Source: Mobula hypostoma (Eukaryota). Taken from it: 64,000 nucleotides of DNA. The DNA lies in assembly GCF_963921235.1 (NCBI RefSeq), contig NC_086097.1, positions 80,540,001 to 80,604,000 on the forward strand. The letters are read 5' to 3'. Position 1 is the first letter of the stretch. The number at the start of each line of letters is the position of its first letter. A program made the translations under genes and the position numbers. Shown one piece after another: positions 7,674 to 60,869 of this stretch. The notes under the pieces were generated by a model. That model had not been told where the DNA came from, did not search any database, and was given only the letters and a program-made list of their open reading frames with translations.

Positions 7674-9774
7674 GGAAGTCTCTTTTTCTGTTGATCAGCG
7701 TCAGAAAAGCCAAATTAAATCCATTGTAATTCAATGTTGTAAAACAATAAAACATGAAAACTTCTAAGGGAGGAGGCACTGTATATGGTGAGTAGGGGGA
7801 AATCTAATGGGACAAATCCATTTTACAAATTGACTTAAGACACATTAATTGATCTCATGAAGATTTAATGGTCCATAGCTTCATCAAAAGCAATTTATGA
7901 TATTGTGTGTCAAACACAATTTAAGGCAATCCAATAGGTTAAGAAGGTCTATAGTAAACCCAGCAGGAAGCAGACAGTCTTCAACAACTTAAGTTAATGC
8001 AAAGCCTTCAACATGACAAAATATCTCAAAGCCCTTCACAGGAGCATTAACTATTATACAGAGCCACGGCAAGATAATAGACAAGCAAAGCACGCCCAAG
8101 GATACAAATGCAAACTTGGTCCTGGAACTGAAACACCAATTCCACTTCTTTCCCCACAGCTGCAGTTTTCATTGCTCAATACTTTCTATACTGTCTTCAG
8201 AAGGGCAGCTTCAATATTGAGAAGTTTGGGAAGGAAATGCGGTCAAAATTTAGAGAAAGGTGATCAATCAGCTGTAGTATCAAGATTAAAATTAGGGATG
8301 CACAATAGGGCAGATTGGCTGACTGCAGATCTTGGAGGACAATTTATGTGACTGAACATTGTAAAGGATTTTGTTGGGTGTTTAGGAAGATGGGCAGATA
8401 AGGGAGAACTGCCAATTTATATCAACAATGGTTTTCAATGTTTTGCAAAGATAGGTTTGGAGCATTGCAGAGACATTCTCTTTGGTTCAAATGAAATCGT
8501 TATAGAATTGGTTTCATTAAAGTATTTTATAAAATATGAATCTAAGCACAAGCAAGCTTCAAAAATCATCGAGCACACGAGAAACATGCCATGAAATGTT
8601 TAAGGGAGCAATTGGTTTTAGAATAGCTGTTTTCTTTAAATAACAAGGACCTTCTCTTCATTACAGTCGCTTTGAGTGAGCAGCTATTCAGATACTGTTG
8701 CTTATTCACCTACCATAACCTGGATTTTCCACTAGAGAAAAGAAATTTTAAAAAAAACTACATTTTAATGGCTGCATCAGAATATTATTGAGATGAACCT
8801 TACAAGCATAGTGTAGAGTTTAATTAATGGCTTAAAAAATTTCCGTTACAAAATATTGAGCGCGCTTTCTGCTTTAATGAAAAAATGGCAGTAATCTTAA
8901 TTCAGAATCACTTGAAAATAAATGCTTTCTTTTATCCCCAAGCAGAAATGAAATGACAAAATTCCAGTTCCTGAAATTAAGTGAGAATTTTGAAAAAAGA
9001 TGTAGATATTGCTAAATGAAAGATTTTCTCTCAATGCACACTCCTGGTTTTTTTATTAGCAAAGATGTTGGTTTAAAGTGTTCGCATTGTAGGCAGCAAA
9101 AGCTGATAAGCGAGACATGTAAGAACATTGTGTCACTTAATACAAGATTTTTGCCATTTAGCAGTAAGGATTAAGTGCAGGTATTGCTTTAATTAATTGC
9201 ATGACTCTATGCCAGCATCAGGTCTGCTTTGGCACTGCGTCCTGAAAATCAGCCTCTGACCTTGGTCCTGAATTGTTGCCTCTTTTAACAACATTTTCTT
9301 TGTAAGTCATTTTCAGGAAAGAAAATGTTCAACAGACTTTTCTACATTTCTTTTATGACTGAGTTACTGAAGAATACATAAATTAGCAAGGGCCATGTCT
9401 CTCCTCAAGCAAACTCTACGGTTCACTGAGAAGACTTATCATGCATCTTATTCAATTTGGCATCAGATCCCCAGATTCTCAATGATTGAGAATCCACAGC
9501 TTAGAGGACAGAAATTCCCAAGGATTTACAATTCAATGTGGAAAGAAGCCTCTCTACATTTGTTCTAAATGACTAATTCATTATCCCGTGACCAGATTTC
9601 TCAATTCTAAACTCTCCATCAGGAGGAAAATCTATCTCTCTTCCAGTTAGTCTTGTTATTTTCTCTGTGAGGTTACCTTACATTCGCCCAGATTCTGGTC
9701 AACATGTCCAAACTGAAGCCTACTTTGGAAGACCAAATTAGAGTCAGATTTATTATCACTGACTTAAATAACAT

Positions 9775-9918
9775 CAGTTCAGCCCTGATGAAGGGTCTCG
9801 GTCCAAAACATTGACTGTTAACTCTGTTCTATAGATGCTACTTGGCCTGCTGAGTTCCTCCAGCATCTTTTGTTTGTTGCTCGGATTTCCAGCATCTGCA
9901 GATTTTCTCATGTTTGTG
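9775..9918 (+). mobile_element. Penelope-like 3' terminus fragment with degenerate hammerhead
   Basis: ccctgatgaagggtctcggtccaaaacattgactg...cagcatctgcagattttctc homologous to 15790-15922. Confidence 0.8.
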
Positions 9919-11421: not shown

Positions 11422-12332
11422 TTCAGCGTCAATGAATTGGTGCTACAGACCAAGTGAGATCCCCAACAAGAAATATACAATAAGACTGTTGTTTGTATAT
11501 ATCTATAAAAATATTCAAAGAATTATCAACCTAAATGGCCTAAGCTAGTTTGCTAACAGTATGCACTGCATAAGCTGAGAGCTGGCTAGGGTTGCTGGGC
11601 AACACTTCTGAGCTGCACCCAATAGTGGATACATTGTAATAATCTGTGGGCCACTAGCGTGGGGAAGTGCACAGAGACAGAAGCAGCAAGGAAGTTAGAG
11701 AAGTCAGTCAAACTCTCAGGGAGAGAGTTCACTTTTGTAGTCCAGGTAAATAAAATAATAAATAAACAGCCAGGAAAATGGAGCAAATACCTACAGTACC
11801 TAATAAAGCCTCCTGAGACATTTGGTTTCTCTGAACCAGGGGACTTAGAGAGATTTAGGGTTGCAAGTAATCTCAGTCAGTCTTCAGAAGAGCATCAAAT
11901 AAGCACACTGATAAATTGCATGGAGGACAAAGCAGATGACATCATGGATGGATTAGCACTGACAGATGCTCAGAAGATGTACAAAGCAGTGCAGGTCAAA
12001 TTCAAAGAATATTTTACAGGAAAACAAAATGTGATATATGAAAACAGGAGCCAGATGAAAATACAAATGACTTCATCACAGCATTGTATGCCCTGCCAGA
12101 CAATGGTGCATATGGAAATGTGAGAGATGAATTCATTAGAGACAGGGTTGTTGTTGAGTTACTAGACACCAAATTATCAGAAAGACTTCAGTTACAGGCA
12201 AATATCACTCTAGAGAAGGCAGAGTGAGAATGTTCACCAGCAACAGGCATGAAAGTGATGCTGAGGTAAAGCTACACACATCAAAGTTGCTGGTGAACGC
12301 AGCAGGCCAGGCAGCATCTGTAGGAAGAGGTG

Positions 12333-12370
12333 CAGTCGACGTTTCAGGCCGAGACCCTTCGTCAGGACTA
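12333..12370 (-). ncRNA. Minimal type I hammerhead ribozyme
   Basis: Minus strand tagtc-CTGACGA-agg gtctcgg cct-GAAA-c-GTC-gactg: intact core, helix I and helix II pairing. Confidence 0.85.
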
Positions 12371-12665
12371 ACTGAAGGAAGAATGAGTAAGGGATTTGAA
12401 AGTTGGAGGGGGAGGGGGAGATCCAAAATGATAGGAGAAGACAGGAGGGGGAGGGATAGAGCCAAGAGCTGGACAGGTGATAGGCAAAAGGGGATACGAG
12501 AGGATCATGGGACAGGAGGTCCGGGAAGAAAGACAAGGGGCGGGGGGAACCCAGAGGATGGGCAAGGGGTATATTCAGAGGGACAGAGGGAGAAAAAGGA
12601 GAGTGAGAGAAAGAATGTGTGCATAAAAATAAGTAACAGATGGGGTACGAGGGGGAGGTGGGGCA

Positions 12666-14365
12666 TTAGCGGAAGTTAGAGAAGTCGATGTTCATGCCAG
12701 CAGGTTGGAGGCTACCCAGATGGAATATAAGGTGTTGTTCCTCCAACCTGAGTGTGGCTTCATCTTTACAGTAGAGGAGGCCGAGGATAGACATGTCAGA
12801 ATGGGAATGGGATGTGGAATTAAAATGTGTGGCCACTGGGAGATCCTGCTTTCTCTGGCGGACAGAGCGTAGATGTTCAGCAAAGCGGTCTCCCAGTCTG
12901 CGTCGGGTCTCGCCAATATATAAAAGGCCACATCGGGAGCACCGGACGCAGTATATCACCCCAGTTGACTCACAGGTGAAGTGTTGCCTCACCTGGAAGG
13001 ACTGTTTGGGGCCCTGAATGGTGGTAAGGGAGGAAGCGTAAGGGCATGTGTAGCACTTGTTCCGCTTACACGGATAAGTGCCAGGAGGGAGATCAGTGGG
13101 GAGGGATGGGGGGGACGAATGGACAAGGGAGTCGTGTAGGGAGCGATCCCTGCGGAATGCAGAGAGAGGGGGGGAGGGAAAGATGTGCTTAGTGGTGGGA
13201 TCCCGTTGGAGGTGGCGGAAGTTACGGAGAATAATATGTTGGACCCGGAGGCTGGTGGGGTGGTAGGTGAGGACCAGGGGAACCCTATTCCTACTGGGGT
13301 GGCGGGAGGATGAAGTGAGAGCAGATGTACGTGAAATGGGGGAGATGCGTTTAAGAGCAGAGTTGATAGTGGAGGAAGGGAAGCCCCTTTCTTTAAAAAA
13401 GGAAGACATCTCCCTCGTCCTAGAATGAAAAGCCTCATCCTGAGAGCAGATGCAGCGGACACGGAGGAATTGCAAGAAGGGGATAGCGCTTTTGCAAGAG
13501 ACAGGGTGAGAAGAGGAATAGTCCAGATAGCTGTGAGAGTCAGTAGGCTTATAGTAGACATCAGTGGATAAGCTGTCTCCAGAGACAGAGACAGAAAGAT
13601 CTAGAAAGGGGAGGGAGGTGTCGGAAATGGACCAGGTAAACTTGAGGGCAGGGTGAAAATTGGAGGCAAAGTTAATAAAGTCAAAGAGTTCTGCATGCGT
13701 GCAGGAGGCAGCACCAATGCAGTCGTCGATGTAGCGAAGGAAAAGTGGGGGACAGATACCAGAATAGGCACGGAACATAGATTGTTCCACAAACCCAACA
13801 AAAAGGCAGGCATAGCTAGGACCCATACGGGTGCCCATAGCTACACCTTTAGCTTGGAGGAAGTGGGAGGAGCCAAAGGAGAAATTATTAAGAGTAAGGA
13901 CTAATTCCGCTAGACGGAGCAGAGTGGTGGTAGAGGGGAACTGATTAGGTCTGGAATCCAAAAAGAAGCGTAGAGCTTTGAGACCTTCCTGATGGGGGAT
14001 GGAAGTATATAGGGACTGGACATCCATGGTGAAAATAAAGTGGTGGGGGCCAGGGAACTTAAAATCATCGAAAAGTTTAAGAGTGTGAGAAGTGTCACGA
14101 ACATAGGTCGGAAGGGATTGAACAAGGGGGGATAAAACCGTGTCGAGGTATGCAGAAACGAGTTTGGTGGGGCAGGAGCAAGCTGAGACAATAGGTCGGC
14201 CAGGACAGGCAGGTTTGTGGATCTTGGGTAGGAGGTAGAAACGGGGAGTGCGGGGTGTGGGAACTATAAGGTTGGTAGCAGTGGATGGGAGATCCCCTGA
14301 GCGGATAAAGTCGGTGATGGTGTGGGAGACAATGGCCTGGTGCTCCTTAGTGGGGTCACGATCGA
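12666..14365 (-). CDS. Penelope-like RT + GIY-YIG endonuclease, 5'-truncated but uninterrupted
   Basis: FYLLPKIHK..PGRPIVS, MDVQSLYTSIP, GVAMGTRMGPSYA, LRYIDD, CKRNKCYTC linker, VIYCVRCSRCGLLYIGETRRRLGDRFAEH; the ORF-track start (14366-14468) is antisense of the second copy. Confidence 0.93.
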
Positions 14366-15496
14366 TGGGTTTGTGGAACAATCTATGTTCCGTGCCTATT
14401 CTGGTATCTGTCCCCCACTTTTCTTTCGCTACATCGACGACTGCATTGGCGCTGCTTCCTGCACGCATGCAGAACTCTTTGACTTTATTAACTTTGCCTC
14501 CAACTTTCCCCTGCCCTCAAGTTTACCTGGTCCATTTCCGACACCTCCCTCCCCTTTCTAGATCTTTCTGTCTCTGTCTCTGGAGACAGCTTATCCACTG
14601 ATGTCTACTATAAGCCTACTGACTCTCACAGCTATCTGGACTATTCCTCTTCTCACCCTGTCTCTTGCAAAAGCGCCATCCCCTTCTCGCAATTCCTCCG
14701 TCTCTGCCGCATCTGCTCTCAGGATGAGGCTTTTCATTCTAGGACGAGGGAGATGTCTTCCTTTTTTAAAGAAAGGGGCTTCCCTTCCTCCACTATCAAC
14801 TCTGCTCTTAAACGCATCTCCCCCATTTCACGTACATCTGCTCTCACTCCATCCTCCCGCCACCCCACTAGGAATAGGGTTCCCCTGGTCCTCACCTACC
14901 ACCCCACCAGCCTCCGGGTCCAACATATTATTCTCCGTAACTTCCGCCACCTCCAACGGGATCCCACCACTAAGCACATCTTTCCCTCCCCTCCTCTCTC
15001 TGCATTCCGCAGGGATCGCTCCCTACACGACTCCCTTGTCCATTCGTCCCCCCCATCCCTCCCCACTGATCTCCCTCCTGGCACTTATCCGTGTAAGCGG
15101 AACAAGTGCTACACATGCCCTTACACTTCCTCCCTTACCACCATTCAGGGCCCCAAACAGTCCTTCCAGGTGAGGCAACACTTCACCTGTGAGTCAACTG
15201 GGGTGATATACTGCGTCCGGTGCTCCCGATGTGGCCTTTTATATATTGGCGAGACCCGACGCAGACTGGGAGACCGCTTTGCTGAACATCTACGCTCTGT
15301 CCGCCAGAGAAAGCAGGATCTCCCAGTGGCCACACATTTTAATTCCACATCTCATTCCCATTCTGACATGTCTATCCACGGCCTCCTCTACTGTAAAGAT
15401 GAAGCCACACTCAGGTTGGAGGAACAACACCTTATATTCCGTCTGCGTAGCCTCCAACCTGATGGCATGAACATCGACTTCTCTAACTTCCGCTAA
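14366..15496 (+). pseudogene. Second, shorter Penelope RT/GIY-YIG copy with a 1-bp frameshift near 14507
   Basis: FRYIDD...FASNF then frame change; ORF 14753-15496 nearly identical to the C-terminus of 12666-14365. Confidence 0.92.
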
Positions 15497-15789
15497 GGCC
15501 CCACCTCCCCCTCGTACCTCATCTGTTACTTATTTTTATGCACACATTCTTTTTCTCACTCTCCTTTTTCTCCCTCTGTCCCTCTGAATATACCTCTTGC
15601 CCATCTTCTGGGTCCCCCCCCCCTTGTCTTTCTTCCCGGACCTCCTGTCCCATGATCCTCTCGTATCCCCTTTTGCCTATCACCTGTCCAGCTCTTGGCT
15701 CTATCCCTCCCCCTCCTATCTTCTCCTATCATTTTGGATCTCCCCCTCCCCCTCCAACTTTCAAATCCCTTACTCACTCTTCCTTCAGT

Positions 15790-15827
15790 TAGTCCTGACG
15801 AAGGGTCTCGGCCTGAAACGTCGACTG
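15790..15827 (+). ncRNA. Minimal type I hammerhead ribozyme
   Basis: tagtc CTGACGA agg gtctcgg cct GAAA c GTC gactg; predicted cleavage after 15822. Confidence 0.85.
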
Positions 15828-18800
15828 CACCTCTTCCTAGAGATGCTGCCTGGCCTGCTGCGTTCACCAGCAACTTTGATTTGTGTTGCTTGAATTTCCA
15901 GCATCTGCAGTATTCCTGTTGTCTGAGGTAAAGCTAGAAGCTGTACAAGAAGAAGGATGCAAACAAGGTGCAATCAGAAAGAGGTGACAGTAGAGCTCAG
16001 CTCAAACAAAACAGAAAAGCAAAACAAAGAGCAGGTAAAATATCCAACTGCAGGGATGTGGCAAGTCTCCATTCCACGTCAAAGAGCTCTGGCCAGCAAA
16101 ACAAATGAAATGCCACCAATGCATTAGAGTTGGCCATTAAAAAAGCCAGTGTCACTCAGGAGATCAAAGAAGACCATGATTCAGATGGAGAGAGAGCTTT
16201 CCTTGGGGATCTAGATTCAAGTAGACAATGGTGTTGTACTACGGTTCAGTTGCAAAATGAGGCAGTGACCTTCAAAATGAACACTGGAGTAGATGTCACA
16301 GACATCCCCAAATGTCTATTCATAAAACTGGAGAAGGATAGAGGCCTTACACTAAACCAAAGAAAATGCTCATAAGGCCAGGCCATAAGTTCAGTGTGAA
16401 AGGAATGTTTACTACTTCCATCCATAAGAATGAGAAGCCGTTAAAAATGATGTCTTTGTTGATCAGAATCTTGTCTCACCATTACCGGGATGACATGCCA
16501 TTGAGAAGCTGAACCTCATTGCAAGGTTGAATTCGCTAAACAATGTTCAATGGCAGAAGAAATACCCAGAGTTGTTTATAGGCCTGGGGGATACTGAATG
16601 AAGAATTCCTTAATCAACTGAGGCCTAGAGTAATGCCCTACTCTCCGTTCACAGTGAGGCATATACTAGTCCTATTGATAAACAAAGTCAAAGCTGAACT
16701 TGAGAGAATGGAGGCGCTTGGCATCATAATTAGAGTGAACGGACCTACTGATTGGTGTGCGGGCATTGTTCCTGCTCACAAGCCATTTAGCACAGTGAGG
16801 ATCTTTGTTGATCTAACCTAAGGGAGAAGGTTATTCTGCCCTCTGTCGAGCACACATTGGGTGTGCGCTGGGTGGAGGAATGTTCTTTACCAAACTAGAT
16901 GCAGGGTTTTGGCAGATTTATTTCGTTCCTGGGGCACAGAAGCTCACAACCTTTATCACACCATATGGATGCTGTGCCTTCAAAAGATTCCCTTTTGACA
17001 TCTCATCAGCCCCTGAATTCTTTCATATGAGGATGAACCAAATTTTGGAAGGACTGGAAGAAGTAGTCTGCCACATGGATGATAGACTCATCTCCAGAAG
17101 CTCAAGTGAGGAATATGACAATAGAGTGGAAAATGCCTTGGAGAACCTGATACAGGCTGGAATTACCCTGAACAAATGAAATGCAAATTTGCAAAGTTGG
17201 AGGTAAGGTCCTCAGAGGGAGTGAAACCAGATTCAGACAAACTGGCAAGAGCCACTTCCATTGGTCTATGGGGAGTAGTTATATAAAATTGCAGTGGTGT
17301 ATGAAAATCGGTGGCAAATGCATCAAGAACACTGTCTCCTACTGAAGAGCATTACACCAAAATCAAAAAAGGAGACGCTCTCATGTGGGCTGGAGAATGC
17401 TTCAGCTGCTGCTTGATAGGCACTAAATTCCTACTTGAAACAGACCACAAGCTACATCGTACTCCTCAGCTCGAAACACTTTGATGACTTGCCTCCACAT
17501 CTGCAAAGATTCAGCAAAACTACTAGGACTTGATGTTTCAATCCCTATGGTAAGTTGGCACTCTCAATGTTGACAGTGGGCTTGGAGTGGTGACAAGGAG
17601 GGAGGGTAGGTACATCATTGGGGTCATCAGGTGGGCACCCTCCTTCTTTGACATTTCGTTGATAAGCCCACAACGTCTCCAAAGGGCTCAATGGTGCTAC
17701 CTGGCATTCCAGATACACCCCCCTCAGTTCCATACCCTCCTGTCTTCATCTTGCAGCCCAGTTGTCTTTCCTTTTAATCCAAATCCAATTGCTGCTTTCT
17801 TCTGCTGCATTTGATAAGGACTTGATTGCTTGTTGGAGGGAGTGACCCCTCACCCCCATCTTCTTCAATAGACTGGTCGTAGGTGCTGTTATGCGATAGT
17901 GTTATGACACTGAACATATACTTGACGAATCTTTTACAACACCAGACACTCTGTTGAACATGACATGCAAAAGTGAGTGGATAGAAGCTGACTCCCCCCT
18001 CATGGAAGAAACCAACATCTACTTAGCTCAGGTATGTGAAAGCTTTCATACCTCATGGAGTAAACTGGATGAAATTCACACCGAGTTGGAAAAGGTTCAA
18101 ATCTGCAGGAAGGTAATGCAATACTGAGAGCATGGATGACCAACTGTTCCAAAAGGAGCTCATGAACTCAGACCTTACTGGCTTGAAAGAATCACGCTCA
18201 CCTGTCTTGATGGTTTGCTGATAAAGGGCTCCAGACTCAATATTCCTGCTTCTATGCATGCCAAAATCATCAGTGAAATCCACCAAGGTCTCGAAAAAGG
18301 CATAGAAAAATGTCACCTTAGAGCAAGGCAATCTTTGCAGTGGTCTGGTCTGAGCACACAGCTGGGAGATTGTGTGAAGCCTGCAGAAAACTGCACAAAA
18401 ATCATGCCAAATCTCTCTGTCCTACAGAATTCCCAGACTTTTCATAGCAAATTGCAGGCACAGACATTGTCAAACTGAAAAGAGACAAATATCTTCTCAC
18501 TATAGATTATATTCACAGAATGTTGAGGTGTCCAAACTGTCCTCCACATCCTCAGCAGCAGATAAACAACATCTGAAAGCTCTATTCACTTGCCATGGAA
18601 TACCAGAGACACGTGTCAGACAACCGTCTACAATTTAGCCGATCAGAGTTCAAAGCCTTTGCTAGGGACTATGAGTTCAAACACCAGATAAGCAGTCCAC
18701 GGTACCCATAGGCAAATGGAGAAGTGGAAAGAGCAGTGGAGACTGTTAACAATCTTCTACTGAAGGCAAAAGACGCCTACAAAATATTGTTAGCTCATTG

Positions 18801-22210: not shown

Positions 22211-22358
22211 AAGTGATTAAGTTGCCCTTATTTTATGTGACAACCTTTCCAGTGGTTCCTCTTTGGATGCCTTTCCAGAACTGTGTTATCCAGTATCCCT
22301 TATTTCCCCTTTATCTAATGTTTTATTTACGTCCTCAAAACTCTAATTAACTAATCAA

Positions 22359-22551
22359 AACACAAACAAGAGAAAATCTGCAGATGCTGGAAATCCGAGC
22401 AACACACACAAAATGCTGGAGGAACTCAGCAGGCCAGGCAGTATCTATGGAGAAATGTACGTTTGAGATTTCGGCCCAAAATGTCAACTGTACTTTTTTC
22501 CAATAGATGCTGCCTGGCCTGCTGAGTTCCTCCATCATTTTGTGCGTGTTG
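22359..22551. mobile_element. Miniature palindrome of two Penelope 3' termini
   Basis: caacacacacaaaatgctggaggaactcagcaggccaggcag ... ctgcctggcctgctgagttcctccatcattttgtgcgtgttg; hammerhead remnant at the centre. Confidence 0.85.
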
Positions 22552-24686
22552 ACCAGTCAATGTGATTTTTCCTTTACAAAACTATATTGTTTCTACTTAA
22601 TCAATTGATTTTCTAAGTTCTCCATTACTAAGACTTCATTGACATATTTTAGCAATTTATTGACAACATTTGCCAGGTTAACCAGTTTACACGTTATACC
22701 TTTCCTTAAATAGTATTACTTTATTTTTTAACCTTCTAATCTGCTGATCATGCTCTTTTTTTCTAAAATGAATTCTCTTGCCCCTGTTTCTGTCTTATTC
22801 TGTTCTTTTTACAATACCCGAAAAATAGATTCCTTGCTAACATGTATACTCAATCTTTTCGATTCATCATATTTTGAAATATTGGATGCTGCTTCCAAAA
22901 AATGATTCCAACCCTCATACTTCCAAATTTTTCTGGCGTAAGTTCTAATCTAATACACTTGAAAACTTTTCAGTTAGTCACAGATGAATTTATTTATTTA
23001 TTTTTAAACAGAGCTCATACATCTGAATAGAATGTAGAAGTGTTGCAGTTTTCAAACTACTTCTTCAAATGTTTGCCGTTATTTTGCTTTCAGACATTTG
23101 AATCTAATTGTGGATAATTTGCAACATGGAAAGAGAACATTTCCTCCCACTATTGACTTTGTTTAATTCTACATCTCTCCACTGTTCTCTGATCCAGAGA
23201 TATATTAAACACTTGTAAGCATCTATGTTATTCATTTCAGTGTCTCCTCATTATAGAAATCACCACAAAAATCATTCGCCGGGTTAAGAGATTTCTCATT
23301 AATTCCTTCCTGTCTCCAGCAGTGCTACCTCATACATATTTATGGACCTAAACTTTAATTTTGTGATACAAATGCAGACATTTTCCACACGCAAAGGAGA
23401 ATTGGTTAAGGTTGCGTACTTGGGTTTTCAGAAGGCCTTTGACAAGGTGCCACACATGAGGCTGCTTATCAAGTTATGAGCCCATAGTATCACAGGAAAG
23501 ATTCTAGCATGGATAAAGCAATGGCTGATTGGCAGGAGGCAAAGAGTGGGAATAGTTTTAGTTGGCTTTTCTAGTTGGCTGCCAATTTCTAGTAGTGTTC
23601 CAGAGGGGTCTATGTTGGGACTGATTCTTTTTACATTATATGTCAGTGATTTGGATGTTAGATTGATGGCTTGGTTACAAAGTTTGCATATGAAATGAAG
23701 ATAGGTGGAGGGGCAGGTAGTCTTGAGGAAGTAGAGAGGCTACAGAAGGACTCAGACAGATTTGGAGAATGGCAGATGGAATAGAGTGTTGAAAAGTGTA
23801 TGGTCCTGCACTTTGGTAGAAGTTAAAGGGTTGGCTATATTCTGAATGGAGCGACAATACAAAAAAACTGAAGTGCAAAGGGATTTGAGAATCCTTGTGC
23901 AGGATTCCCTAAAGTTTAATTGGCAGGTTGAGTCTGTGGAGAGGAAGTCAAATGTGATGTCAGCAATCATTTCAAGAGGACTAGAATATAATATTTACTC
24001 AGAGAGTGGTAGCTGTGTGGAACGAGCTTCCAGCAGAAGTGGTTGAGGCAGGTTCAATGTTGTCATTTAAAGTTAAATTGGACAGCTATATGGACAGGAA
24101 AGAAATGGAGGGTTATGGGCTGAGTGCAGGTTGGTGGGACTAGGTGAGAGTAGGAGTTCGGCACGGACTAGAAGGGCCAAGATGTTTCCATGCTGTAATT
24201 GTTATATGGTTATATGGCTAAAAACAAGGATGTAATGTTGAGACTTTATAAAGCATTTGGGAGGCCTCACTTGGAGTATTTTGAGCAGTTTTAGGCACCT
24301 TATCTTAGAAAGGATGTGCTGAAACTAGGGAGGATTCAAAGGAGGTTCATGAAAATGATTCCAGGATTGCATGGCTTAACATATGAAGAGTGTTCGTTGG
24401 CTCAGGGCCTGTATTCACTGGAATTCAGAAGAATGAGGGGTAACCTAATTGAAGCACATCAAATGATGAAAGGCCTTGATAAAGTAGATGTGGAAAAGAT
24501 ATTTCCTAGGGTGGAGAGTCTAAGACCAGAGGACACAGCCTCAGAATAGAGGGGTGTGCTTTTAGAACAGAGATGAGAAGGAATTCCTTTAGCCAGAGAG
24601 TGGTGAATCTGTGGAATTCTTTGCTACAGGCAGCTGTGGAGGCCAGATCTTTATGTATATTTAAGGCAGAGGTTGACAAATTCTTG

Positions 24687-25630
24687 TAACTTCCTCCCCC
24701 TCCAACGGGATCCCACCACTAAGCACATCTTTCCCTCCCCCACCTCTCTGCATTCCGCAGGGATCGCTCCCTACGCAACTCCCTTGTCCATTCGTCCCCC
24801 CCATCCCTCCCCACTGATCTCCCTCCTGGCACTTATCCGTGTAAGCGGAACAAGTGCTACACATGCCCTTACACTTCCTCCCTTACCACCATTCAGGGCC
24901 CCAAACAGTCCTTCCAGGTGAGGCAACACTTCACCTGTGAGTCGACTGGGGTGATATACTGCGTCCGGTGCTCCCGATGTGGCCTTTTATATATTGGCGA
25001 GACCCAACGCAGACTGGGAAACCGTCTTGCTGAACATCTACGCTCTGTCCGCCAGAGAAAGCAGGATCTCCCAGTGGCCACACATTTTAATTCCACATCT
25101 CATTCCCATTCTGACATGTCTATCCACAGCCTCCTCTACTGTAAAGATGAAGCCACACTCAGGTTGGAGGAACAACACCTTATATTCTGTCTGGGTAGCC
25201 TCCAACCTGATGGCATGAACATCGACTTCTCTAACTTCCGCTAAGGCCCCACCTCCCCTCGTACCCCATCTGTTACTTATTTTTATGCACACATTCTTTC
25301 TCTCACTCTCCTTTTTCTCCCTCTGTCCCTCTGAATATACCTCTTGCCCATCCTCTGGGTCCCCCCACCTTGTCTTTCTTCCCGGACCTCCTGTCCCATG
25401 ATCCTCTCGTATCCCCTTTTGCCTATCACCTGTCCAGCTCTTGGCTCTATCCCTCCCCCTCCTGTCTTCTCCTATCATTTTGGATCTCCCTCTCCCCCTC
25501 CAACTTTCAAATCCCTTACTCACTCTTCCTTCAGTTAGTCCTGACGAAGGGTCTCGGCCTGAAACGTCGACTGCACCTCTTCCTACAGATGCTGCCTGGC
25601 CTGCTGCGTTCACCAGCAACTTTGATGTGT
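24687..25630 (+). mobile_element. Young 5'-truncated Penelope-like copy (GIY-YIG + terminus)
   Basis: Near-identical to 14938-15884; TSD gttgacaaattcttg at 24672-24686 and 25631-25645; ORF 24918-25244. Confidence 0.95.
25536..25573 (+). ncRNA. Minimal type I hammerhead ribozyme
   Basis: Identical to 15790-15827. Confidence 0.85.
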
Positions 25631-26369
25631 GTTGACAAATTCTTGATTGGTCAGGACAAGAAGGGATACTGGGAGAAGACAGGAGTTTAGGGCTGAGAGG
25701 AAAATTGGATCGACCATGATGAAATGGTGGAGCAGACTCGATGGCCAAGTAGCCTAATTCTGCTCCTATACCTTATGGTATTTTGTTCTTATCTACACTA
25801 TCAAACCGATGCCATTCCTTCAGGGGTGGTCACTGTATGTGGGTTAGAGAAACTTGGCAATTTCAGGAGCATAGCTCTTCAGCTGCTGGCAAAATATCCA
25901 TTTACTCACTGAAACAGAAGTCATCCCTAAAAATTCAAGTTTTGCAGTGTGAGAAACTGGAGTCAGAAAATGTTTAAAGCTCTCTCAAAGTGACCTTGTA
26001 AATAAGGGACATTCTTTCCAATTCATGGCATCACAAGCTTGTGATCATTCAACAAGGAGGTGGAGGATCTGGAAGAACACTGAGCACCTTGTGACTTTAC
26101 AATGGATTTCATTAAAGAAAAGTACAAATGCACACTTCTCAAATAATCCATCCAACCCTTTCAACGAGGCAGAGTTTCCTAGTCCTATTTCAGCTTCACT
26201 GGCCAGATTGTCCTCACAATTTGAATGTTAATGGAAGGAAGTTCAAGATGCAAGTTTATTGTTATTCAATCATACACATGTAAACAGCTAAATGAATCAC
26301 AGTTCCTCTGGGGCCAAGGTGCAAAACCCAGTACATTTAATCATACAAAGCACCGATCAGATATATGTA

Positions 26370-26790
26370 GAGCAACGCACACAAAATGCTGGAGGAACTC
26401 ATCAGTTCAGGCAGCATCTATGGAAAAGAATAAACAAACGACTTTTCAGGCCGAGACACTTTTTCCATACTGAGAAGGAAGGGGGAAGCTGCCAGAATAA
26501 AAAGGTTGTGGGAGAGGAATCAGGCTAGCTGGAAGGCGATAGGTGAAGCCAAGTGGGTGGGAAAGGTCCATGGCTCGAGAAGAAAGAGTCTAATAGGAGA
26601 GGAGAGGGAAGGAGGAGGGGACCCAGGGAGAAGTAATGGGCAGATGTGAAATAAAGGTCAAAGTGGGGAATAGAGGAAGTGGGGGGGGGGGGGGGATAGA
26701 ATTTGTTTACCGGAAGGAGAAATTGATATTAATGCCATCAGGTTGGAAGGTACCCAGACAGAATATAAAGTGTTGCTCCTCCAGCCTGAA
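26370..26790 (-). mobile_element. Older Penelope-like 3' fragment
   Basis: Minus-strand RLEEQHFIFCLGTFQPDGININFS followed by the terminus. Confidence 0.85.
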
Positions 26791-27334
26791 GTCAAATGAG
26801 CACCCAAAGTAGTGCTCATGTATGTGTTGCACTGATTCACATATCAACTTGCTCACAAAGTAGTTCTCTGGAAAACCTATGCACAGAGTTGGTCTCATCA
26901 GCAATGGGTGTCTTGTAAGATTCTATGATTGCCCTTTTCATTTTAAGCATTACTAGCTATACAAAATGTAAAGTGAATGATGCCAATCTGCTAACAGAAG
27001 TCATCAAATTATGAATTGGATAGATCATTAAACTCCAGGGATGGTTCTGTCTCCAGGGCAAAGTTCTACCTTTATAATACTCCGCTTAGAGGCTAGCACC
27101 CCAGTCTGAAATCCTAGGATCCAATCTAGATCACATACCTAATCCATGGGGTGTCAATATCCTAGGCTTCATGCAACCTAATCAACACGTAGCAATTATC
27201 TCAGAAAGGTATGATCAATATGTCACATGACACATTAATTACATTAATGGATAAATAAACTGAGATAAACTGAAGTCTAGGTTGTAGATTCTCCAGTAAT
27301 GATGAATTTGTGTAGCCTGACAATCTCGGCAGTG

Positions 27335-29755: not shown

Positions 29756-30345
29756 CAAATCATGTGTAAATTAGTGAAAATCATAAATGCTGTTGACTTC
29801 AATGAAGTAGAATTATCATAATAATCACCGTGCTCAGAAAACAAGCCCCAAAAGTCCAAGGAAAATACTGTGTGACTTAAGTAACAATACAAGTCGACCA
29901 CAATATAAATGATGCATTTATACCATGCAAGCACCCCTACCTCCACCAATATATAGAGCTATGAGATTACATTGACCAAGACCCCAGGAAGAACTGGCTC
30001 CTGCTCATCTGGAGCAGCAGTGTGTTTCTCATGAGGTAGAAAGTCTGTCAACCAGCTCAGGGAAATTATGCAGGTAATTATAATTTAAAGACATGATACT
30101 CAATGGGTCTGGTGAAAAACTTATCAAAATATATCCATGGGAACCACACAAGTTCCATCAGGATTCAGCCATATGTTTCTCCTTAATACTAAAGTAGCTG
30201 ATTATTTACAGGTGATCTTAACTCTTTGCACAGCCACATTACTTTTTGCGACACATCAAAAGAAACAATCCACACATTGCTGACGCTGAAAAATATTTTC
30301 AACATTTTGTCACCTTAGGAATGAAGGGAGTTGCACTGCAGTCCC

Positions 30346-31683
30346 AAACAAGAGAGAACGCGCAAATGCTGGAAATCTGAGCAACACACACAAAATGCTG
30401 GAGGAACTCAGCAGGCCAGGTAGCATCTTGGAAAAGAGTACAGTCAACGTTTTGGGCTGAGACCCTTTGGCAGGACTGGAGAAAAAAATGCTGAGAAGAT
30501 TTAAAAGTTTCGGGGAGGAGAGAGAGAAACACCAGGTGATGGATGCAACCCAAAGGGGGAGGGATGAAGTAAAGAGCTGGGAAGTTGATAGGTAAAAGGG
30601 ACAGAAGGCCATGCAAGGAAAAAAAAGGGGGGAGGAGCACCAGAGGGAAGTGATGGGTGGGCAAGGAGATAAGGTGAGAGAGGGAAAAGGGGATAGGAAA
30701 TGGTGAAGGAGAGGGGGCTGGGTGGGCATTACCAGAAGTTTGAGAAATTGCTGTTCATGCCATCAGGTTGGAGGCTACCTAAGCTATAAGGTGTTGTTCC
30801 TTCAGCCTAATGACAGTAGAGGAAGCCATGGATAGAAATATCAGAATGGGAATGGGAAATGGAATTAAAATGGGTGGCCACTGGGAGATCCTGCTTTTTG
30901 AGGTGCTTGGCGAAGTGGTATCTCAATCTATGTCAGTTCTGACCGTTATACAGGAGGCTACATCGGGAGCACTGGACAAAGTAGTGACCCTTTCAGACTC
31001 ACGGGTGAAGTGTCACCTCACCTGGAAAGGCTGCTTATGGCCATGAATGGTAGTGAGGGAGGTGATGTAGGGGCAGGTGTAGCACTTGTTCCACTTGCAA
31101 GGATAAGTGGCAGGAGGGAGATCAGTGGAGAGGGACAAATGGACAAGGGAGTTGCGTTGACTGTACTCTTTTCCAAGATGCTACCTGGCCTGCTGAGTTC
31201 CTCCAGCATTTTGTGTGTGTTGCTCAGATTTCCAGCATTTGCGCGTTCTCTCTTGTTTGGGACTGCAGTGCAACTCCCTTCATTCCTAAGGTGAACATGA
31301 GGGAAAGATGTGCTTGGTGAAGGGATCCCGTTAGAGATGGCTGAAGTTTTGGAGAATTATGTGCTGGACGCAGAAGCTGGTGGGGTGGTAGGTGAGGACA
31401 AGAAGAACCCTATCCCCAGTGGGAGGATGGGGTAAGAGCAGAAATGAGTGAAATAGAAGAGATGCGGTTGAGGGCAGTGTTGATGGTGGAGGAAGGGAAG
31501 CCCCTTTCTTTGAAATAGGAGGACATCTCCCTCATTCTAGAATGAAAAGCCTCATTCTGAGAGCAGATGCAGCAGAGGCAGAGGAATTGAGAGAAGGGGA
31601 TGGCATTTTTACAAGTAACAGGGTGGGAAGAGAAATAGTCCAGGTAGCTGTGAGAGTCCATGGGTTTGTAATAGACATCAGTG
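30346..31683 (-). mobile_element. Older degenerate Penelope-like copy containing a 140-bp inverted insertion
   Basis: TDVYYKPMDSHSYLDYFSSHP..ERGFPSSTI; degenerate GIY-YIG; decayed hammerhead 30441-30478. Confidence 0.9.
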
Positions 31684-32798: not shown

Positions 32799-34741
32799 AT
32801 TAATAGTCCATTCTCCAGTCATCCTGATGCAGGGCTTTAACCAGAAATGTTAACGATTCCTCCCTAACCTTTCCCACCCCAGCCCTTCCATACATGCTGC
32901 TCCATGCACTGAATTCCTCCAGCTTATTGCTCCGGATTACTGCATCTGCAGTATTTTGATTCCATGAATGAAGAGTTAAAGGCCAACAGCAACTTTATGA
33001 ATTTCAGATCAATCATTCACAATGGTCTATGGGCACGAGTTGTTGATAATGATTACTTTTCTGTTATCAGATCCTGGGTTTTCAAACTGGGGTGTCATGC
33101 AACAAAGATATCCACACCAGAAGCTTATCATATCTCATTTTCAGCCGCTCTTATATTTCTTAATATTGACAGCTCTGACTGAAGTTATCGATGAGAAACT
33201 TTAACTCCATTTCCCTCTGTAAGTGAACATGCTGAGCCTTGATATTTATTGGATACAGATTATATGCAGTAAGTTTACATACATCCCAATTAAATTAACA
33301 GATGGAACTCATTAATATGCCTGCTTTCTATACTGATGGTGACACTAATTTTTAAACAGTTGCAATATCTTGAGATTTTTAGCTCCTTGGTTACTTTATC
33401 CCATAATATCGTATAAAATCAAACACTATTCACAAAGTGCTGATTATCAGAATCTCAGCATGTTAGCATGATAACACTAAAGCAGATTTCAGACATTGAA
33501 CAAAGACATTATTTATATAGACACCCAAAGCAAAATGAAGTTGCTATTAAAAATAAAGCTACTCACTGTTGTGTAAAAGAGTTTGCTGACAGCAGAAAAT
33601 AATTAAACACATTTCAGTGTAGCTCAGTTCCTTAAAAGTGTGTTCATTATAAAGCCCAGTAGGCTAATTACTAAGGAAGTAACAAGATTGATGGGAGAGG
33701 GATCTGACGATGCGGTGGGCAGACACTCAGTCAAGGTGACAACAGGGAGCGCTCAATAAGTTCCCAACCTCCCCTCCAACATAGACACACACACACACAA
33801 AAATCGATGACGAGCTCGGGGAGAGTTAGGGACTTAATAACTAGCAGCCTCAAAGAGAAAAGGATTCACATCATGTGGACCAGTTAGCTGATGACCAAAT
33901 AATTCAATTTACAACAGTGCTTTACAATTCACTACCAGAAAAAGGTTGGAAAAATTGTGGTGGTGCAGATGAAATTACAATTGCAAGTACACACAGAGTG
34001 CTTTAGTATTATGATCATTACATCATGGTATCACTCTAACTAGATATTGGGCAGTAAAGTTGATCTCAAGATTAAGGAAAAAACATTGAACGATACAATT
34101 ACAGCAGATGCTTATTTTTAGAATATCTATAAGGATTCAAACATATAAGAATTATTTTCCCTCACTATGTACAGATAGAGGATTTAAATTGACAGCAATA
34201 CTTTGGTTCCTATTCACAGACTCTACACAATCACAGGAACAGCAGGATGAATAGAATCTGTATTATTTGGTAAAAATTCTTGAAGAGTTGTGCATAGAAG
34301 TGGGGGGGGGGGTGGTGGGAACTGGAAAGGAAAGCTGCTGCATGTACTCTACATTCAAGCACTAACTGAAGAATATTTTTCACCCTTCATTTAGGATAGG
34401 GCTTCAAAACATGAAAGAAAATGTCAGCAGGAACCAGGTGGACTGACATGGGCAGTTCCAGAGGGAATGGCAGGCTGTCAGCAATGAGGGGAATCTGACA
34501 GGCAACGCATGACATGGACTTCCATGTATGTGCTTTGAAAGAAGCAAGTACAATTGGAGCTGGATGCTTGATGCCTTCTTCACTGAGGGACTCTCCAGTG
34601 AGCTCAGTAGTGAAGCAGCAATGTGAAGAGCAGGTCCAGGTATACATTGCATGCTTCCCCAGGTTTCCATCATGGAGAATGACAGTGTCAACAGTGAAAA
34701 GAGATTTGTTGGACATGTGGGGAGATAAGATAAATGCCTTG

Positions 34742-34990
34742 ATTTACAGCTTCTTATTTCATCCTTTTCCCCCCTCCCCACCACCCACCTCTCCCCTCAC
34801 CTGGTCTCACCTATCAGCTGCCAGCTTGTACTCCTTCCCCTCTCCCTCTCCTCCTTATTCTGGCTTCTGTCCCCTTCCTTTCCAGTCTTGATGGGGTGGG
34901 GGGGTCTCAGCCTGAATCATCGTTTATTCTCCTCCATAGATGCTGCCTGACTTACTGAGCTCCTCCAGCATTTTGTGTATGTTTCTCTTG
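34742..34990 (+). mobile_element. Older Penelope-like 3' terminus fragment
   Basis: cacctatcagctgccagcttg...ggtctcagcctgaa...tagatgctgcctgacttactgagctcctccagcattttgtg. Confidence 0.75.
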
Positions 34991-37576: not shown

Positions 37577-37771
37577 TGTAGCGATGTGCTACACACAGCG
37601 CTAGAATAACCACACAGAGTCGGTGAGTTGGAGTTGCGATGAAAGAGGTTTATTCAAACTTCGCGGCCCGCTTTAAAGCCTTCCCGTTCCCGCCCTTTTT
37701 GCTGCTGGCCCTCTGCCTGCGCACGCTGTTTCGTGAGCTGGTTCGTGGGTGTCAGAAAGTGGGTCGCCACA
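37577..37771 (-). repeat. 3' LTR
   Basis: TGT...ACA; 6 differences from 41580-41774. Confidence 0.97.
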
Positions 37772-40700
37772 TAACCACCACCCCCCAGAACCGGCGATAC
37801 CTCCCCCAATGTCCACAGCCTGGATCGGCCTCTGTTTGGGAGGTCTGCCCCTGCGCCGCGGTGCCTGAGCCTGGACCGGTTGCGCCAAGTCCACATGGGC
37901 CGGTTTGAGTCGGTCCACCGTGAAAACCTCCTCTCTCCCCACAATGTCCAGCACGAACGTGGACCCGTTGTTGCTGATCACCTTAAACGGCCCCTCGTAG
38001 GGCCGCTGTAGCGGTGCCCGGTGTCCGCCCCGTCGTACAAAAAGAAACTTACAGTTCTGCAGGTCTTTGGGTACGCAGGTCGGGCTCTGTCCGTGCTGTG
38101 AAGTGGGGATGGGGGCCAGGTTACCGAGCCTCTCCCGTAGTCTGTCCAGGACTGCTGTGGGTTCTTCCTCTTGCCCCCTTGGGGCTGGTATGAACTCTCC
38201 TGGGACGACCAGGGGTGCGCCGTACACCAACTCAGCCGACGAGGTGTGTAGATCCTCTTTGGGCGCCGTGCGGATTCCGAGCAGGACCCAGGAAAGTTCG
38301 CCCACCCAGTTAGGCCCCTCCAGGCGGGCCATGAGAGCCGATTTCAGGTGACGGTGGAAGCGCTCCACTAGTCCGTTCGACTGTGGGTGGTAGGCAGTTG
38401 TGTGGTGTAGCTGTGTTCCTAAAAGTCTGGCCATAGCCGACCACAGGCTGGAGGTGAACTGGGTGCCCCTGTCGGAGGTAATGTGGGCCGGTACCCCAAA
38501 GCGTGCTACCCAGGTTGCGATCAGTGCTCGGGCGCAGGATTCGGAGGTGGTGTCGCTGAGCGGGACTGCCTCTGGCCATCTGGTGAACCAGTCTACGATA
38601 GTTAGGAGGTACCGCGCTCCTCGTGACACTGGCAGGGGCCCCACGATATCCACATGGATGTGGTCGAACCTCCGGCGGGTGGGTTCGAACCGCTGCGGTG
38701 GAGCCTTGGTGTGCCGCTGCACCTTGGCCGTTTGGCACTGCATGCACGTTTTGGCCCATTCACTGACCTGTTTACGAAGTCCATGCCACACGAACCTGTT
38801 GGAGACCAGCCGGACAGTTGTCCTGATGGAGGGGTGCGCTAAGTTGTGAATGGATTCGAACACCCGCCGGCGCCAGGCTGCTGGGACGACGGGGCGGGGT
38901 TGGCCAGTAGCTACGTCACTTAGTAGGGTCCTCTCACCTGGGCCTACGGGGAGGTCTTGGAGCTGCAAACCAGAGACTGCAGTCCTGTAACTGGGGATCT
39001 CAGCGTCTGCCTGCTGTGCCTCTGCCAGCGCTGCATAGTCCACCCCCTGGGACAGGGCCTGTATGGTAGGTCTGGAAAGTGCGTCTGCCACGACATTGTT
39101 CTTTCCAGAGACATGCCGGATGTCCGTCGTGTACTCGGAGATGTAGGACAGATGTCGCTGCTGGCGGGACGACCAGGGGTCGGACACCTTAGTGAACGCA
39201 AAGGTAAGCGGTTTGTGGTCTGTGAACACGGTGAAGGGCCTACCTTCTAAGAAGTACCTGAAATGCCGGATTGCCAGGTATAGTGCCAATAGCTCCCGGT
39301 CGAAAGCACTGTATTTGAGTTCGGGTGGTCGTAGGTGTTTGCTGAAGAACGCCAGGGGTTGCCAGCGACCCTCGATGAGTTGTTCCAGCACTCCACCGAC
39401 TGTTGTGTTGGATGCGTCCACCGTGAGGGCAGTAGGAACGTCCGTTCTGGGGTGCACTAGCATCGCGGCGTTTGCCAAGGCTTCTTTGGTTTTAACGAAA
39501 GCAGTTGCGGCCTCTTCGTTCCAGGTAATGTCCTTGCCCTTACCCGACATTAGAGTGAACAAGGGGCGCATGGTTCAGGCTGCTGAGGGGAGGAAATGGT
39601 GGTAGAAATTCACCATACCCACGAATTCCTGCAAGCCTTTGATTGTGTTGGGTCGGGGGAAGTGGCGGACCGCGTCTACCTTGGCGGGCAGCGGGGTTGC
39701 CCCGTCTTTAGTAATCCTGTGGCCCAGGAAGTCGATGGTGTCGAGTCCGAACTGGCATTTGGCTGGATTGATTGTAAGGCCGAATTCACTCAGGCGGGAG
39801 TAGAGCTGGCGGAGGTGGGACAGATGCTCTTGCCGACTACTGCTGGCTATGAGGATGTCGTCCAAATAGATGAATGCAAAGTCCAGGTCGTGTCCCACCG
39901 CGTCCATTAGCCGCTGGAAAGTCTGTGCGGCGTTCTTTAGACCAAACGGCATTCGGAGGAATTCGAAAAGTCCGAACGGGGTGATAAGTGCTGTTTTGGG
40001 GATGTCGTCCGGATGTACAGGGATTTGATGGTATCCCCGGATGAGGTCTACCTTGGAAAAGATCCTCGTGCCGTGTAGGTTTGCTGCGAAGTCTTGAATG
40101 TGCGGCACAGGGTAGCGGTCTGGCGTTGTAGCCTCGTTCAGTCTGCGGTAGTCACCGCATGGTCTCCAGCCCCCCGTTGCCTTGGGCACCATGTGAAAGG
40201 GGGAGGCCCATGGGCTGTCGGACCGTCGTATGATCCCTAATTCCTCCATCTTCTTGAACTCCTCCTTCGCCAGTCGGAGCTTGTCCGGGGGAAGCCTTCG
40301 AGCACGGGCGTGGAGGGGTAGTCCCTGGGTCGGGATGTGGTGCTGTACTCCGTGTCTGGGCATGGCTGCCCTGAACTGCGGTGTCAGTACTGATGGGAAA
40401 TCCGCCAGGACCCTGGTGAATTCATCGTCGGACAGCGTGATGGAGTCCAGGTGTGGGGCTGGCAACTGTGCTTCACCCAGGGAGAACGTTTGAAAAGTCT
40501 TGGCGTGGACTAATCGCTTCCTTTGCAAGTCGACCAGCAGGCTGTGGGCTCGTAGAAAATCTGCCCCCAGCAGTGGTTGGGCCACGGCGGCCAGTGTGAA
40601 GTCCCACGTGAACCGGCTGGAACTGAACTGTAGCCGCGCCGTGCGGGTGCCGTAGGTTCGTATTGTGCTGCCATTAGCGGCCCTCAGGGTGGGTCCCGGT

Positions 40701-41579: not shown

Positions 41580-41774
41580 TGTAGCGATGTGCTACACACA
41601 GCGCTAGAATAACCACACGGAGTCAGTGAGTTGGAGTTGCGATGAAAGAGGTTTATTCAAACTTCGCGGCCCGCTTTAAAGCCTTCCCGTTCCCGCCCTT
41701 TTTGCTGCCGGCCCTCTGCCTGCGCGCGCTGTTTCGTGAGCCGGTTCGTGGGTGTCAGAAAGTGGGTCGCCACC
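41580..41774 (-). repeat. 5' LTR
   Basis: Direct repeat of 37577-37771; outermost base differs (c instead of a at 41774). Confidence 0.97.
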
Positions 41775-41778
41775 CTAC

Positions 41779-42690
41779 CATATTTCTACCACTCGCAATT
41801 TTAGAATCACCCCTCAGCCTCCTTAGCTCGAAGGTAAACATGCCCAGCTTATCAGTCTCCTCTCATAAATGAAAGTTTCCATCCCAGGCAACATCCTGGT
41901 CAATGTCCTCTACACCCTCTCCAGTGCATCACATTCTTCCTATATGTGTGGCAATTAGAAGTCTAGTCGCTAGCCAAAATTTTGATAAATTTGTAACAAG
42001 ACAACACTCTCTGATATTTTGTGCCCTGAATAATGTGGCCAGAGTCCCCTCTGCCTTCTGCACTGCCATATCTATCTTTTCTGCTACCTCCTGGGTCTTA
42101 AAAGGAGGCCAGATAGGCTGAAGTATTGGAAGCTGAGGGTCATTGATAACGTTTATGGTCGCAGTCATTTTCCCAGGATATGGGAGTCCCAGAGGAGTTC
42201 AAGTGAACATAGCTTTCTGATGGGAAGGGAAAGATTTAAAAGGGACTCGAGGGGAAACATTTTCACACAGAGGGTTGTGGGTGTGTGGAGAGAGCTGTCA
42301 GAGGAGGTTGTAGAGGCAGGTACAACTACAGTGTTTAAAAGGTATTTTGGCATGCACATGGATAGTAAAGGATTAGAAAGATTTGGGCCAAACACGGGGA
42401 ATGGAACTAGCTCGGAGAGGCATCTTGGTCAGTGTGGAGGAGTTGGGCCGAATGCCTTGTTTCTGTGCTGCTTGCCTCTATGTCTCTATCTTTGAATTTA
42501 CAAGAGTCTTTTGTTCCTCAATGCTCCTGAGGGACATACCGTTCATTTCACATCTTGCCCGTATTAGAATACTCAACCAATCCTCAGCCCCCAAAGTGGA
42601 TCACCTCGTACTTATCAGGATTAAGTTCCATCTGCTTTGCTCAGCTGATTAATATAATTTTGTAACCCCCAGACTCAATTATCATCTACA
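41779..42690. mobile_element. Old CR1 fragments (minus) with nested plus-strand CR1 3' end (~42165-42490)
   Basis: GRERFKRDSRGNIFTQRVVGVWRELSEEVVEAGT; catcccaggcaacatcctggt. Confidence 0.75.
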
Positions 42691-47206: not shown

Positions 47207-47818
47207 TAATCTGTTTAAGTCTTTCTGCAGCCTTCCTGTGTCCTCAGCACCACCTGCCCCTTCACCAATCTTTGTAACATCTGCAAACTTGGCAACAAAA
47301 CCATCTATTCCATCTAAATTATTGACATACAGCATAAAAAGAAACAGTCCCAACACCGACCCCTGCGGAACATCACTAGTCACTGGCAGCCAACCACTAA
47401 AGGATCCTTTTATTCCCACTCGCTACCTCCTACTAATCAGCCAATGTTCTAGCCATGCTAGTAATTTTCCTGCAATATCATGGGCTCTTAACTTGGTATG
47501 CAGCCTCATGTGTAGCACCTTGTTAAAGGCCTTCTTAAAATCAAAATATACAACTTCCACTGCATCCCCTTTATCTATCCTACCTGTAATCTCTTCAAAG
47601 CATTCCAACAGGTTCATCAGGCAAAATTTTCCCTGAAGGAAAATCACTATCTTGTCCTATCTTTGTACTGTCTTGTCTTGTGTCACCAAGAACTCCATAA
47701 CCTCATCCTTAGCAATTGACTCCAACATCTTCCCATCCACTGAGGTCAAGCTAGCTGGTCTATGATTTCATTTCCGCTGCCTCCCTCCTTTCTTTAAGTG
47801 TGGAGTAACATTTACAAT
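47207..47818 (-). mobile_element. CR1 RT fragment
   Basis: [33 protein letters not shown]. Confidence 0.9.
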
Positions 47819-59978: not shown

Positions 59979-60869
59979 AAGACACAGAAGTACCTGGAAC
60001 TAGACTAAGATTATCGATAATGCAAGGGAAATGACACTGGACATGGACACAGGCCCTGGCTGAGACAAGGACACTGGGCCTGGGCTAGGACTAAGACTAG
60101 GAAAGCAGGACCTGGACGAGGAACTTGGAACTAGGAGCCTGGACTAGGACTCTGAGCCAGAGACTGGACAGGGACCTGGAATATGAGTCTTGACTTGGGC
60201 TCAGAACCTGGATCCAGGTGAGGACTCGGGACTAGGAATAGACTAGACATGAGATAGTACTGTGAATATGAAACCTAGACTGGGACTGGACGAGGAGACT
60301 CCTGGGCTGGACGAGGCACTAGGACAGGACGAGAACACGAAGCCTTGACTTGGACAGGACTGGAGCACAGCACCTTGAACTTGGAACACAGAAACACAGA
60401 ACACAGAGTCAGGACCCCTCCTTGGGAACAGGACATAGGGCCAGGACTTGTACAAGGAACACAGAACCAGGACCCCTCCTTGGGTACAGGACTTAGGGCC
60501 AGGGCTCTACACAGAGGCAGGACCGCTCCTTGGAAACAGGACATAGGGCCAGGACTCTTCTAGACACAGAGCACTAAACACAAGGACACAAAGAGACAGT
60601 TCCAAAGTCAACAATAGATTGTTCCTTATCTTGACACAACAAGGTTCCAGTCTCTCTCCAGCAGGCTAACTTGATGAGGATTCTGACAAAGTGGCAGACA
60701 AGAATTCAGAAGGAAGGAGAAGGGAACAATCCAGCAGGGAATCCTTGGTATTTATGGTGCCAACCCAAAACGAGAATCAGGTGCCTCAATTAAGGCACCC
60801 AATGGAACAAGGGAAAACAGGAAAACCCAGAATAAGGAATCGATAGATTTCACAGACCGGACCATGACA
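59979..60869 (-). mobile_element. Putative LTR-like element with low-complexity and short direct repeats
   Basis: Purine-skewed ggac/agac micro-repeats, three 39-bp repeats (60410-60556), terminus ggaccatgaca shared with 47196-47206. Confidence 0.45.

Follow-up and report, generated by a model that had tools for sequence, protein, structure and literature searches.

A head-to-head Penelope-like element insertion with a single target-site duplication in the genome of Mobula hypostoma

Results

Structure of the inserted locus

The locus described here lies in a 64,000-nucleotide window of the Mobula hypostoma genome. It is a dead insertion of a Penelope-like retroelement (PLE) of the endonuclease-bearing type, composed of two 5'-truncated, oppositely oriented copies that meet at their 5' ends (Table 1). 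Both copies are bracketed by one target-site duplication (TSD), an exact 14-mer identified by sequence comparison. When 3000 random pairs of 40-nt windows with the spacing of the locus were compared, 14 matching bases were reached in two pairs, both of which are the TSD locus itself (starts 12240 and 12243), and the next best match had 11 bases. The protein P0121 aligns by tblastn on both sides of the insert, on one strand and colinearly, and a Pfam match to RVT_1 is found at 16817–17176 in the right flank. The insert thus splits an older LTR-type element, the term Gypsy-type being our reading of its gag–protease–RT order and not a database name. Two contig pieces from run X1 (143 and 173 nt) match the left flank without difference and end before the TSD; inverted repeat I3 of the repeat listing reaches 12269.

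Table 1. Positions of the features at the insertion locus, numbered from the first letter of the window
Feature	Position	Strand	Basis or remark
Left flank, decayed Gypsy-type LTR retrotransposon coding region (insertion target)	11797..12260	+	tblastn, P0121 residues 11–167
Left TSD copy, 14 bp	12261..12274	+	exact sequence match
Long 5'-truncated PLE copy, 2096 nt	12275..14370	-	3' end is the family's short, tail-less end point
Hammerhead-ribozyme core motif (CUGANGA...GAAA), 3' part of long copy	12330..12365	-	pattern only
Open frame, C-terminal 567 codons and stop	12666..14369	-	RT core (YIDD), thumb, CX4CxxC linker, GIY-YIG endonuclease
Unpaired middle of the palindrome, 568 nt, long copy only	13798..14365	-	
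Microhomology TGGGT, 5 nt, probably common to the 5' ends of both copies	14366..14370	.	
Short 5'-truncated PLE copy, 1520 nt	14366..15885	+	starts inside RT core
Hammerhead-ribozyme core motif, short copy	15795..15830	+	pattern only
37-nt tail, right end only	15886..15922	+	repeat D19 and alignment
Right TSD copy, 14 bp	15923..15936	+	exact sequence match
Right flank, same decayed element continuing, colinear	15937..17146	+	tblastn, P0121 residues 191–614

The left arm (12275–13797, reverse complemented) and the right arm (14366–15885) differ in 31 of 1523 aligned columns, corresponding to 97.97% identity. The differences comprise 28 substitutions (19 transitions and 9 transversions; 6 at CpG) and two gaps, of 1 nt at 14508 and of 2 nt near 15613. 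The differing columns are spread along the arms without significant clustering (31 columns, KS p=0.24), and no significant gene-conversion tract was detected between the arms (largest gap, 227 nt; p=0.23). Because each arm carries sequence absent from the other, namely the 568-nt middle on the left and the 37-nt tail on the right, neither arm is a copy of the other. The arm coordinates and the spacer length of the first-pass annotation were reproduced when re-derived by alignment, and its assertions that one 14-bp TSD encloses both arms and that the right end has 37 extra nucleotides were borne out.

A different picture emerged for the central junction, where a blunt fusion at 14365/14366 had been proposed. 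Forty-four contigs of run X1 from other family copies follow the long copy through 14370 and have a loose end there (agreement 0.78). In addition, the codon for the Pro that is conserved in the YLP motif of a Mobula relative, protein P0009, lies within 14367–14369. On these grounds, 14366–14370 likely belongs to both copies, so that a 5-nt overlap is probable in place of the blunt joint; the chance of at least five shared bases at a junction is ~0.005. The same 5-nt match is also present inside the long arm at 13793–13797, and a small palindrome, ATCGAT, is located at the junction (14361–14366). No listed contig or read from the four runs compared, of 24 available, bridges the junction or the TSDs: the two raw-read runs gave 2 and 0 matching reads, and the two contig runs were swamped by family copies (368,881 and 313,582 matching records).

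The outer ends of the two copies are not equivalent. At 12274, 197 contigs of run X1 and 154 of run X4 stop matching, and a third young copy in the window (described below) ends at the same base as the long copy, within its own TSD of 14–15 bp; the short, tail-less end is a fixed end point of the family. When metagenome contigs were searched for the exact pattern of this end, 0 matches were obtained. Read on the minus strand, the last six bases of the left TSD match the start of the tail at five of six positions, and the target of the third copy matches it at the first three bases, this being a post hoc observation on two ends. Such a match beyond the short start site would be expected if target DNA primed reverse transcription there. 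Older PLE copies in the window have ends, near 9900, 22365, and 30365, that are homologous to the 37-nt tail.

Coding content and class of the element

The open frame of the long copy lacks ~340 N-terminal residues in comparison with a 904-aa relative; since the 5' third of the ORF is absent from both copies, the insert cannot be autonomous. In a single frame, the long copy gave Pfam matches to RVT_1 (E 1.6e-6, residues 55–216), just under Pfam's cut-off, and to GIY-YIG (E 9.6e-5, residues 468–543). GIY-YIG alone was matched by Pfam for the short copy in the stretch scanned; this copy carries a frameshift from the 1-nt deletion at 14508. A protein search with the long-copy ORF gave 2164 matches among 8000 candidates scored; the ORF aligns over 99% of its length with RT proteins of 750–900 aa at ~54% identity, and the most identical among the 120 matches listed are from rays, namely M. 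hypostoma (94% and 91%) and Hypanus sabinus (77–87%).

These features place the element among the endonuclease-bearing (EN+) PLEs. RT and, C-terminal to it, GIY-YIG are encoded in one ORF (Pfam); GIY and YIG are separated by the two cysteines that belong to the CCHH motif (CVRC at residue 472 and YIG at 482, with VIY preceding); and the insert shows 5' truncation, pseudo-LTRs (pLTRs; inverted or direct in the class), the optional tail of 30–40 nt, and a TSD, in agreement with the definition in PMC8557442. The CCHH histidines were judged by eye, in the HFNSTSH region. Ahead of the endonuclease, at residue 432, the sequence CKRNKCYTC constitutes a CX2-5CxxC linker, which PMC8557442 assigns to Neptune and Nematis and describes as absent from Penelope/Poseidon. 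The presence of the linker sets the element apart from Penelope/Poseidon, and by this motif it would be of the Neptune/Nematis type. Neptune may be preferred over Nematis in view of the wide vertebrate distribution of Neptune given in bioRxiv 2026.07.22.740005. Two ray gene models, P0001 (bearing a kinase-domain name) and P0005 (a chitinase-domain name), align mostly to the PLE ORF, which suggests that they are mis-annotated or exonised PLE copies.

By pattern, each of the three young copies carries a hammerhead core motif, which lies ~90 nt inward of the short end. Rfam returned no hammerhead match at E<=1 across 9000–33000, and two Rfam matches near 22.4 kb were dismissed as hairpin look-alikes and not hammerheads. 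The minimum-free-energy fold of the monomer is a simple stem, not a three-way junction.

Source of the two arms

At several positions, both arms carry letters that are in the minority in the family: at 14673 (another letter in 99% of the X1 depth and 98% of the X4 depth), 14478/13685 (87–97% other), 15196/12966 (78–86% other), and 13135 with its mirror 15027 (63–81% other), these shares being summed contig depths at 90% likeness, with 40 of 214 difference rows listed, and not copy frequencies. The third copy has the majority letter at 15196/12966 and 13135/15027, the two of these positions that it covers, and shares six other minority letters with both arms. Given these rare alleles common to both, the two arms likely derive from one source lineage. 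In a three-way comparison of the arms and the third copy, 11, 8, and 17 of 951 columns were private, and the two arms do not pair significantly more closely with one another than either does with the third copy (p=0.17). Changes polarised by hand numbered 17 in the left arm and 10 in the right (p=0.25). Set against older outgroup copies (76–85% alike), the left arm agrees with them against the right at 15352, 15497, and 14708, and the right arm against the left at 14705, 15519, and 15553. An origin of the arms from distinct source families is therefore unsupported, the outgroup matches going both ways as homoplasy gives.

Other PLE copies and repeats in the window

The third young copy (24686–25631) belongs to the same subfamily, is ~97% identical to both arms, has a single orientation and the short end, is flanked by its TSD (24672/25631), and sits in what appears by eye to be a LINE 3' region. 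An older miniature head-to-head PLE pair at 22363–22556 turns inside the hammerhead region and has the tail on its left arm only; a possible decayed TSD of 12 bp (22346–22357 and 22552–22563, with three transitions) was noted by eye. The arm starts of this pair lie within ~2 nt of each other, and it is thus uninformative on whether the tail goes with the longer or the shorter arm. Among the 15 joints listed of 3126, most link the left arm at ~12290–12455 to the right arm at ~15790–15855, and correspond to miniature head-to-head copies elsewhere. Two others, one joining 13833 with 14963 and the other 14284 with 14879 (a single contig in each case, with sides of 29 and 27 letters), would represent pairs with inverted parts of ~1 kb and hint at such pairs elsewhere, short-sided joints at 90% likeness being often false.

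Inside an old PLE copy on the minus strand (30362–31683; 69–85% like the young family), an inverted duplication (30310–30449 and 31155–31294) is identical at 140 of 140 positions. It copies the tailed 3' end together with ~52 nt beyond, replacing ~41 nt of the element; no protein match explains the ~52-nt stretch. The full identity within an old copy suggests a recent templated insertion, conversion, or assembly error. Additional 3' ends of old PLE copies, with the tail in some cases and with the short end in others, are present at 9774–9916 (which keeps a hammerhead-like start), 26371–26800, 32830–32966, 34902–34987, and 62736–62835. Other repeats in the window comprise a diverged inverted pair (45542–45986 and 47337–47790; 74–78%, ~450 nt in two pieces, 1.35 kb apart) that is not PLE by blast and probably represents two LINE fragments; a 201-nt direct repeat (37577–37777 and 41580–41780; 96% identical, 4003 nt apart) that could be the LTR pair of another element, an RT-like match being found at 39824–40303 on the minus strand; and a short tandem array of three 50–58-nt units (60394–60556; 84–87% alike).

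Discussion

Comparison with known systems

The inverted part of the insertion had been regarded as unusual in the first-pass annotation, an assessment that the literature does not support, as such units are described in PMC3846280, PMC8557442 and PMC2377424. The Fig. 2 legend of PMC8557442 (Craig et al. 2021) depicts the typical PLE unit with an adjacent inverted 5'-truncated copy, a one-sided tail of 30–40 bp, and a TSD; the inverted pLTRs and optional ~30–40-nt tail mentioned in that annotation are thus given there as typical. Large inverted terminal repeats of variable size are shown for Drosophila virilis Penelope in the Fig. 1C legend of PMC2377424, the head-to-head arrangement is the one seen most often, with units inside 9- and 10-bp TSDs (PMC3846280), and inverted pLTRs and short 3' extensions are listed as known peculiarities in a curation guide (PMC8969392). 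Because an inverted pLTR is a 5'-truncated copy, the 1.5-kb length of the inverted part is a matter of the truncation point. The insertion is in the ordinary inverted form of its class, a configuration that is already known and common.

In detail, the locus resembles canonical EN+ PLE units (the legend of PMC8557442; Pen2a_Av and Pen2 scaffold 304 of Adineta vaga, PMC3846280) in its inverted 5'-truncated neighbour, single TSD, one-sided 30–40-bp tail, and head-to-head order. It differs from them in lacking a direct (tandem) pLTR and a full-length ORF, in the size of the inverted part (1.5 kb versus ~0.2 kb), and in the TSD (14 bp versus 9–10 bp). With the most frequent form of D. virilis Penelope it shares large, variable inverted terminal repeats and an end repeat of 34–37 bp, whereas the Drosophila form has an inner partial tandem, is active, and belongs to the Penelope/Poseidon clade without the CX2-5CxxC linker present here. 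PAc (Poseidon) of Anolis carolinensis has two RT starts, spaced by roughly the length of the tail and situated immediately 3' of a hammerhead motif, and both target strands are cut and extended; it is of a different clade, and inverted products are not described in the main text of PMC11167929. A literature search for PLEs in sharks and rays gave nothing relevant among the papers listed.

In L1 twin priming, a single RNA receives both primers, the second at an internal position, which leaves one 3' end and little duplication. The present locus is similar in that both target strands would prime, in the inverted truncated product inside one TSD, and in the junction microhomology, but with two 3' ends and 1520 duplicated bases it is not a twin-priming product.

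Mechanism of insertion

The claim of a single insertion event is upheld by the one exact TSD, the colinear flanks of one host element, and the minority alleles shared by the arms. The accompanying claim, that both nicks were primed on element 3' ends by double priming or by fold-back, would in its first form be the best reading of the locus, whereas fold-back at the target is disfavoured. We consider it probable that one event comprised two target-primed reverse transcriptions, one on each strand of a 14-nt staggered cut. From the left nick, cDNA synthesis would begin at the inner (short) of two start sites in the element RNA and extend for ~2.1 kb; from the right nick, it would begin at the outer (long) site, which lies 37 nt more 3', and extend for ~1.55 kb. 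The two cDNA 3' ends could then anneal through the five complementary bases (14366–14370), each templating the fill-in of the other. The templates would likely come from one source lineage, either as two RNA molecules or as two units of one tandem transcript, and the 2% divergence of the arms would be mostly later mutation. This double priming is favoured by the 5-nt overlap, the private sequence of each arm, the tail being on the shorter arm, the single TSD, the colinear flanks, the match of the target to the RNA past the short start site, and the minority letters carried by both arms. It is also favoured by the in vitro behaviour of the anole PLE protein (PMC11167929), which cleaves and extends both target strands and begins reverse transcription at either of two neighbouring internal positions, the tail being defined by these; a dimeric form is predicted for the protein. 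Counting against it, PMC11167929, in which a Poseidon-clade element and not one of the present type was studied, gives the start site as alike on both strands, with no target–RNA homology; the 5-nt overlap is equally compatible with fold-back, and the three-way comparison with the third copy did not group the arms significantly.

Fold-back can be envisaged in two forms. For a cDNA primed at the target it is disfavoured and, in its simple form, excluded by the sequence, because the longer arm, which contains the loop, would be made first and would template the second, which could then hold nothing that the first lacked, yet the tail is only on the shorter arm. In the other form, which we judge rather unlikely, the cDNA is self-primed: it folds on the 5-nt match with a 568-nt loop and copies itself to a free hairpin, and the endonuclease trims one tail during integration, so that one template and one RT start suffice. 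Self-priming has been proposed for head-to-head PLE units (PMC3846280), and tails are proposed in PMC8557442 to result from resolution mediated by the endonuclease; at the locus itself, the 5-nt match available in the long arm, the minority alleles common to both arms, the ATCGAT palindrome at the junction, and the many family joints that turn near the hammerhead motif are all in line with it. The first-made longer arm, being tail-less, would nevertheless have to be trimmed, which is impossible for a target-attached cDNA; the tail-less end is a fixed family end point and, by analogy, may be an RT start site, and the target matches the RNA past this end at five of six bases.

The abundance of the family and the 2% difference between the arms, with 17 versus 10 polarised changes, could also be accommodated by two separate insertions, in which a second copy entered at or beside the 5' end of the first and a later deletion or recombination produced the head-to-head pair. 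The single exact TSD around both copies with no second TSD at the junction, the minority alleles shared by the arms, and the head-to-head pattern that is the published norm for the class make such a history improbable. An assembly or library fold-back artefact is more improbable still: such structures are known to trouble assemblies, as remarked in PMC8557442, and the junction is bridged by no listed read, but 31 scattered differences, arm-private sequence, an exact TSD, and colinear flanks are unlike chimeric reads.

Double priming may be extended, tentatively and with less confidence than we place in it for this locus, to inverted PLE units in general, which might arise by two-ended integration by a dimeric RT–endonuclease, with the two nicks committed to different start sites (short and long) and the cDNAs joined by microhomology. 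An explicit double-priming model was not found in the literature searched, although a model with two priming ends may already have been put forward by Evgen'ev 1997, Evgen'ev and Arkhipova 2005, or Arkhipova 2006.

Taken by itself, the locus is of little importance, since it is dead and its configuration is common and already published; its value is that of a single clean observation bearing on the origin of inverted repeats and one-sided tails in PLEs. A genome-wide census could use three of its features to separate double priming from a fold-back intermediate, namely the presence of the tail on the shorter arm, the 5-nt overlap, and the target–RNA match at the tail-less end. If true, the two-ended model would account through a single mechanism for both the one-sided tail and the inverted pLTR, and ray-type genomes such as the present one would provide a large natural test set.
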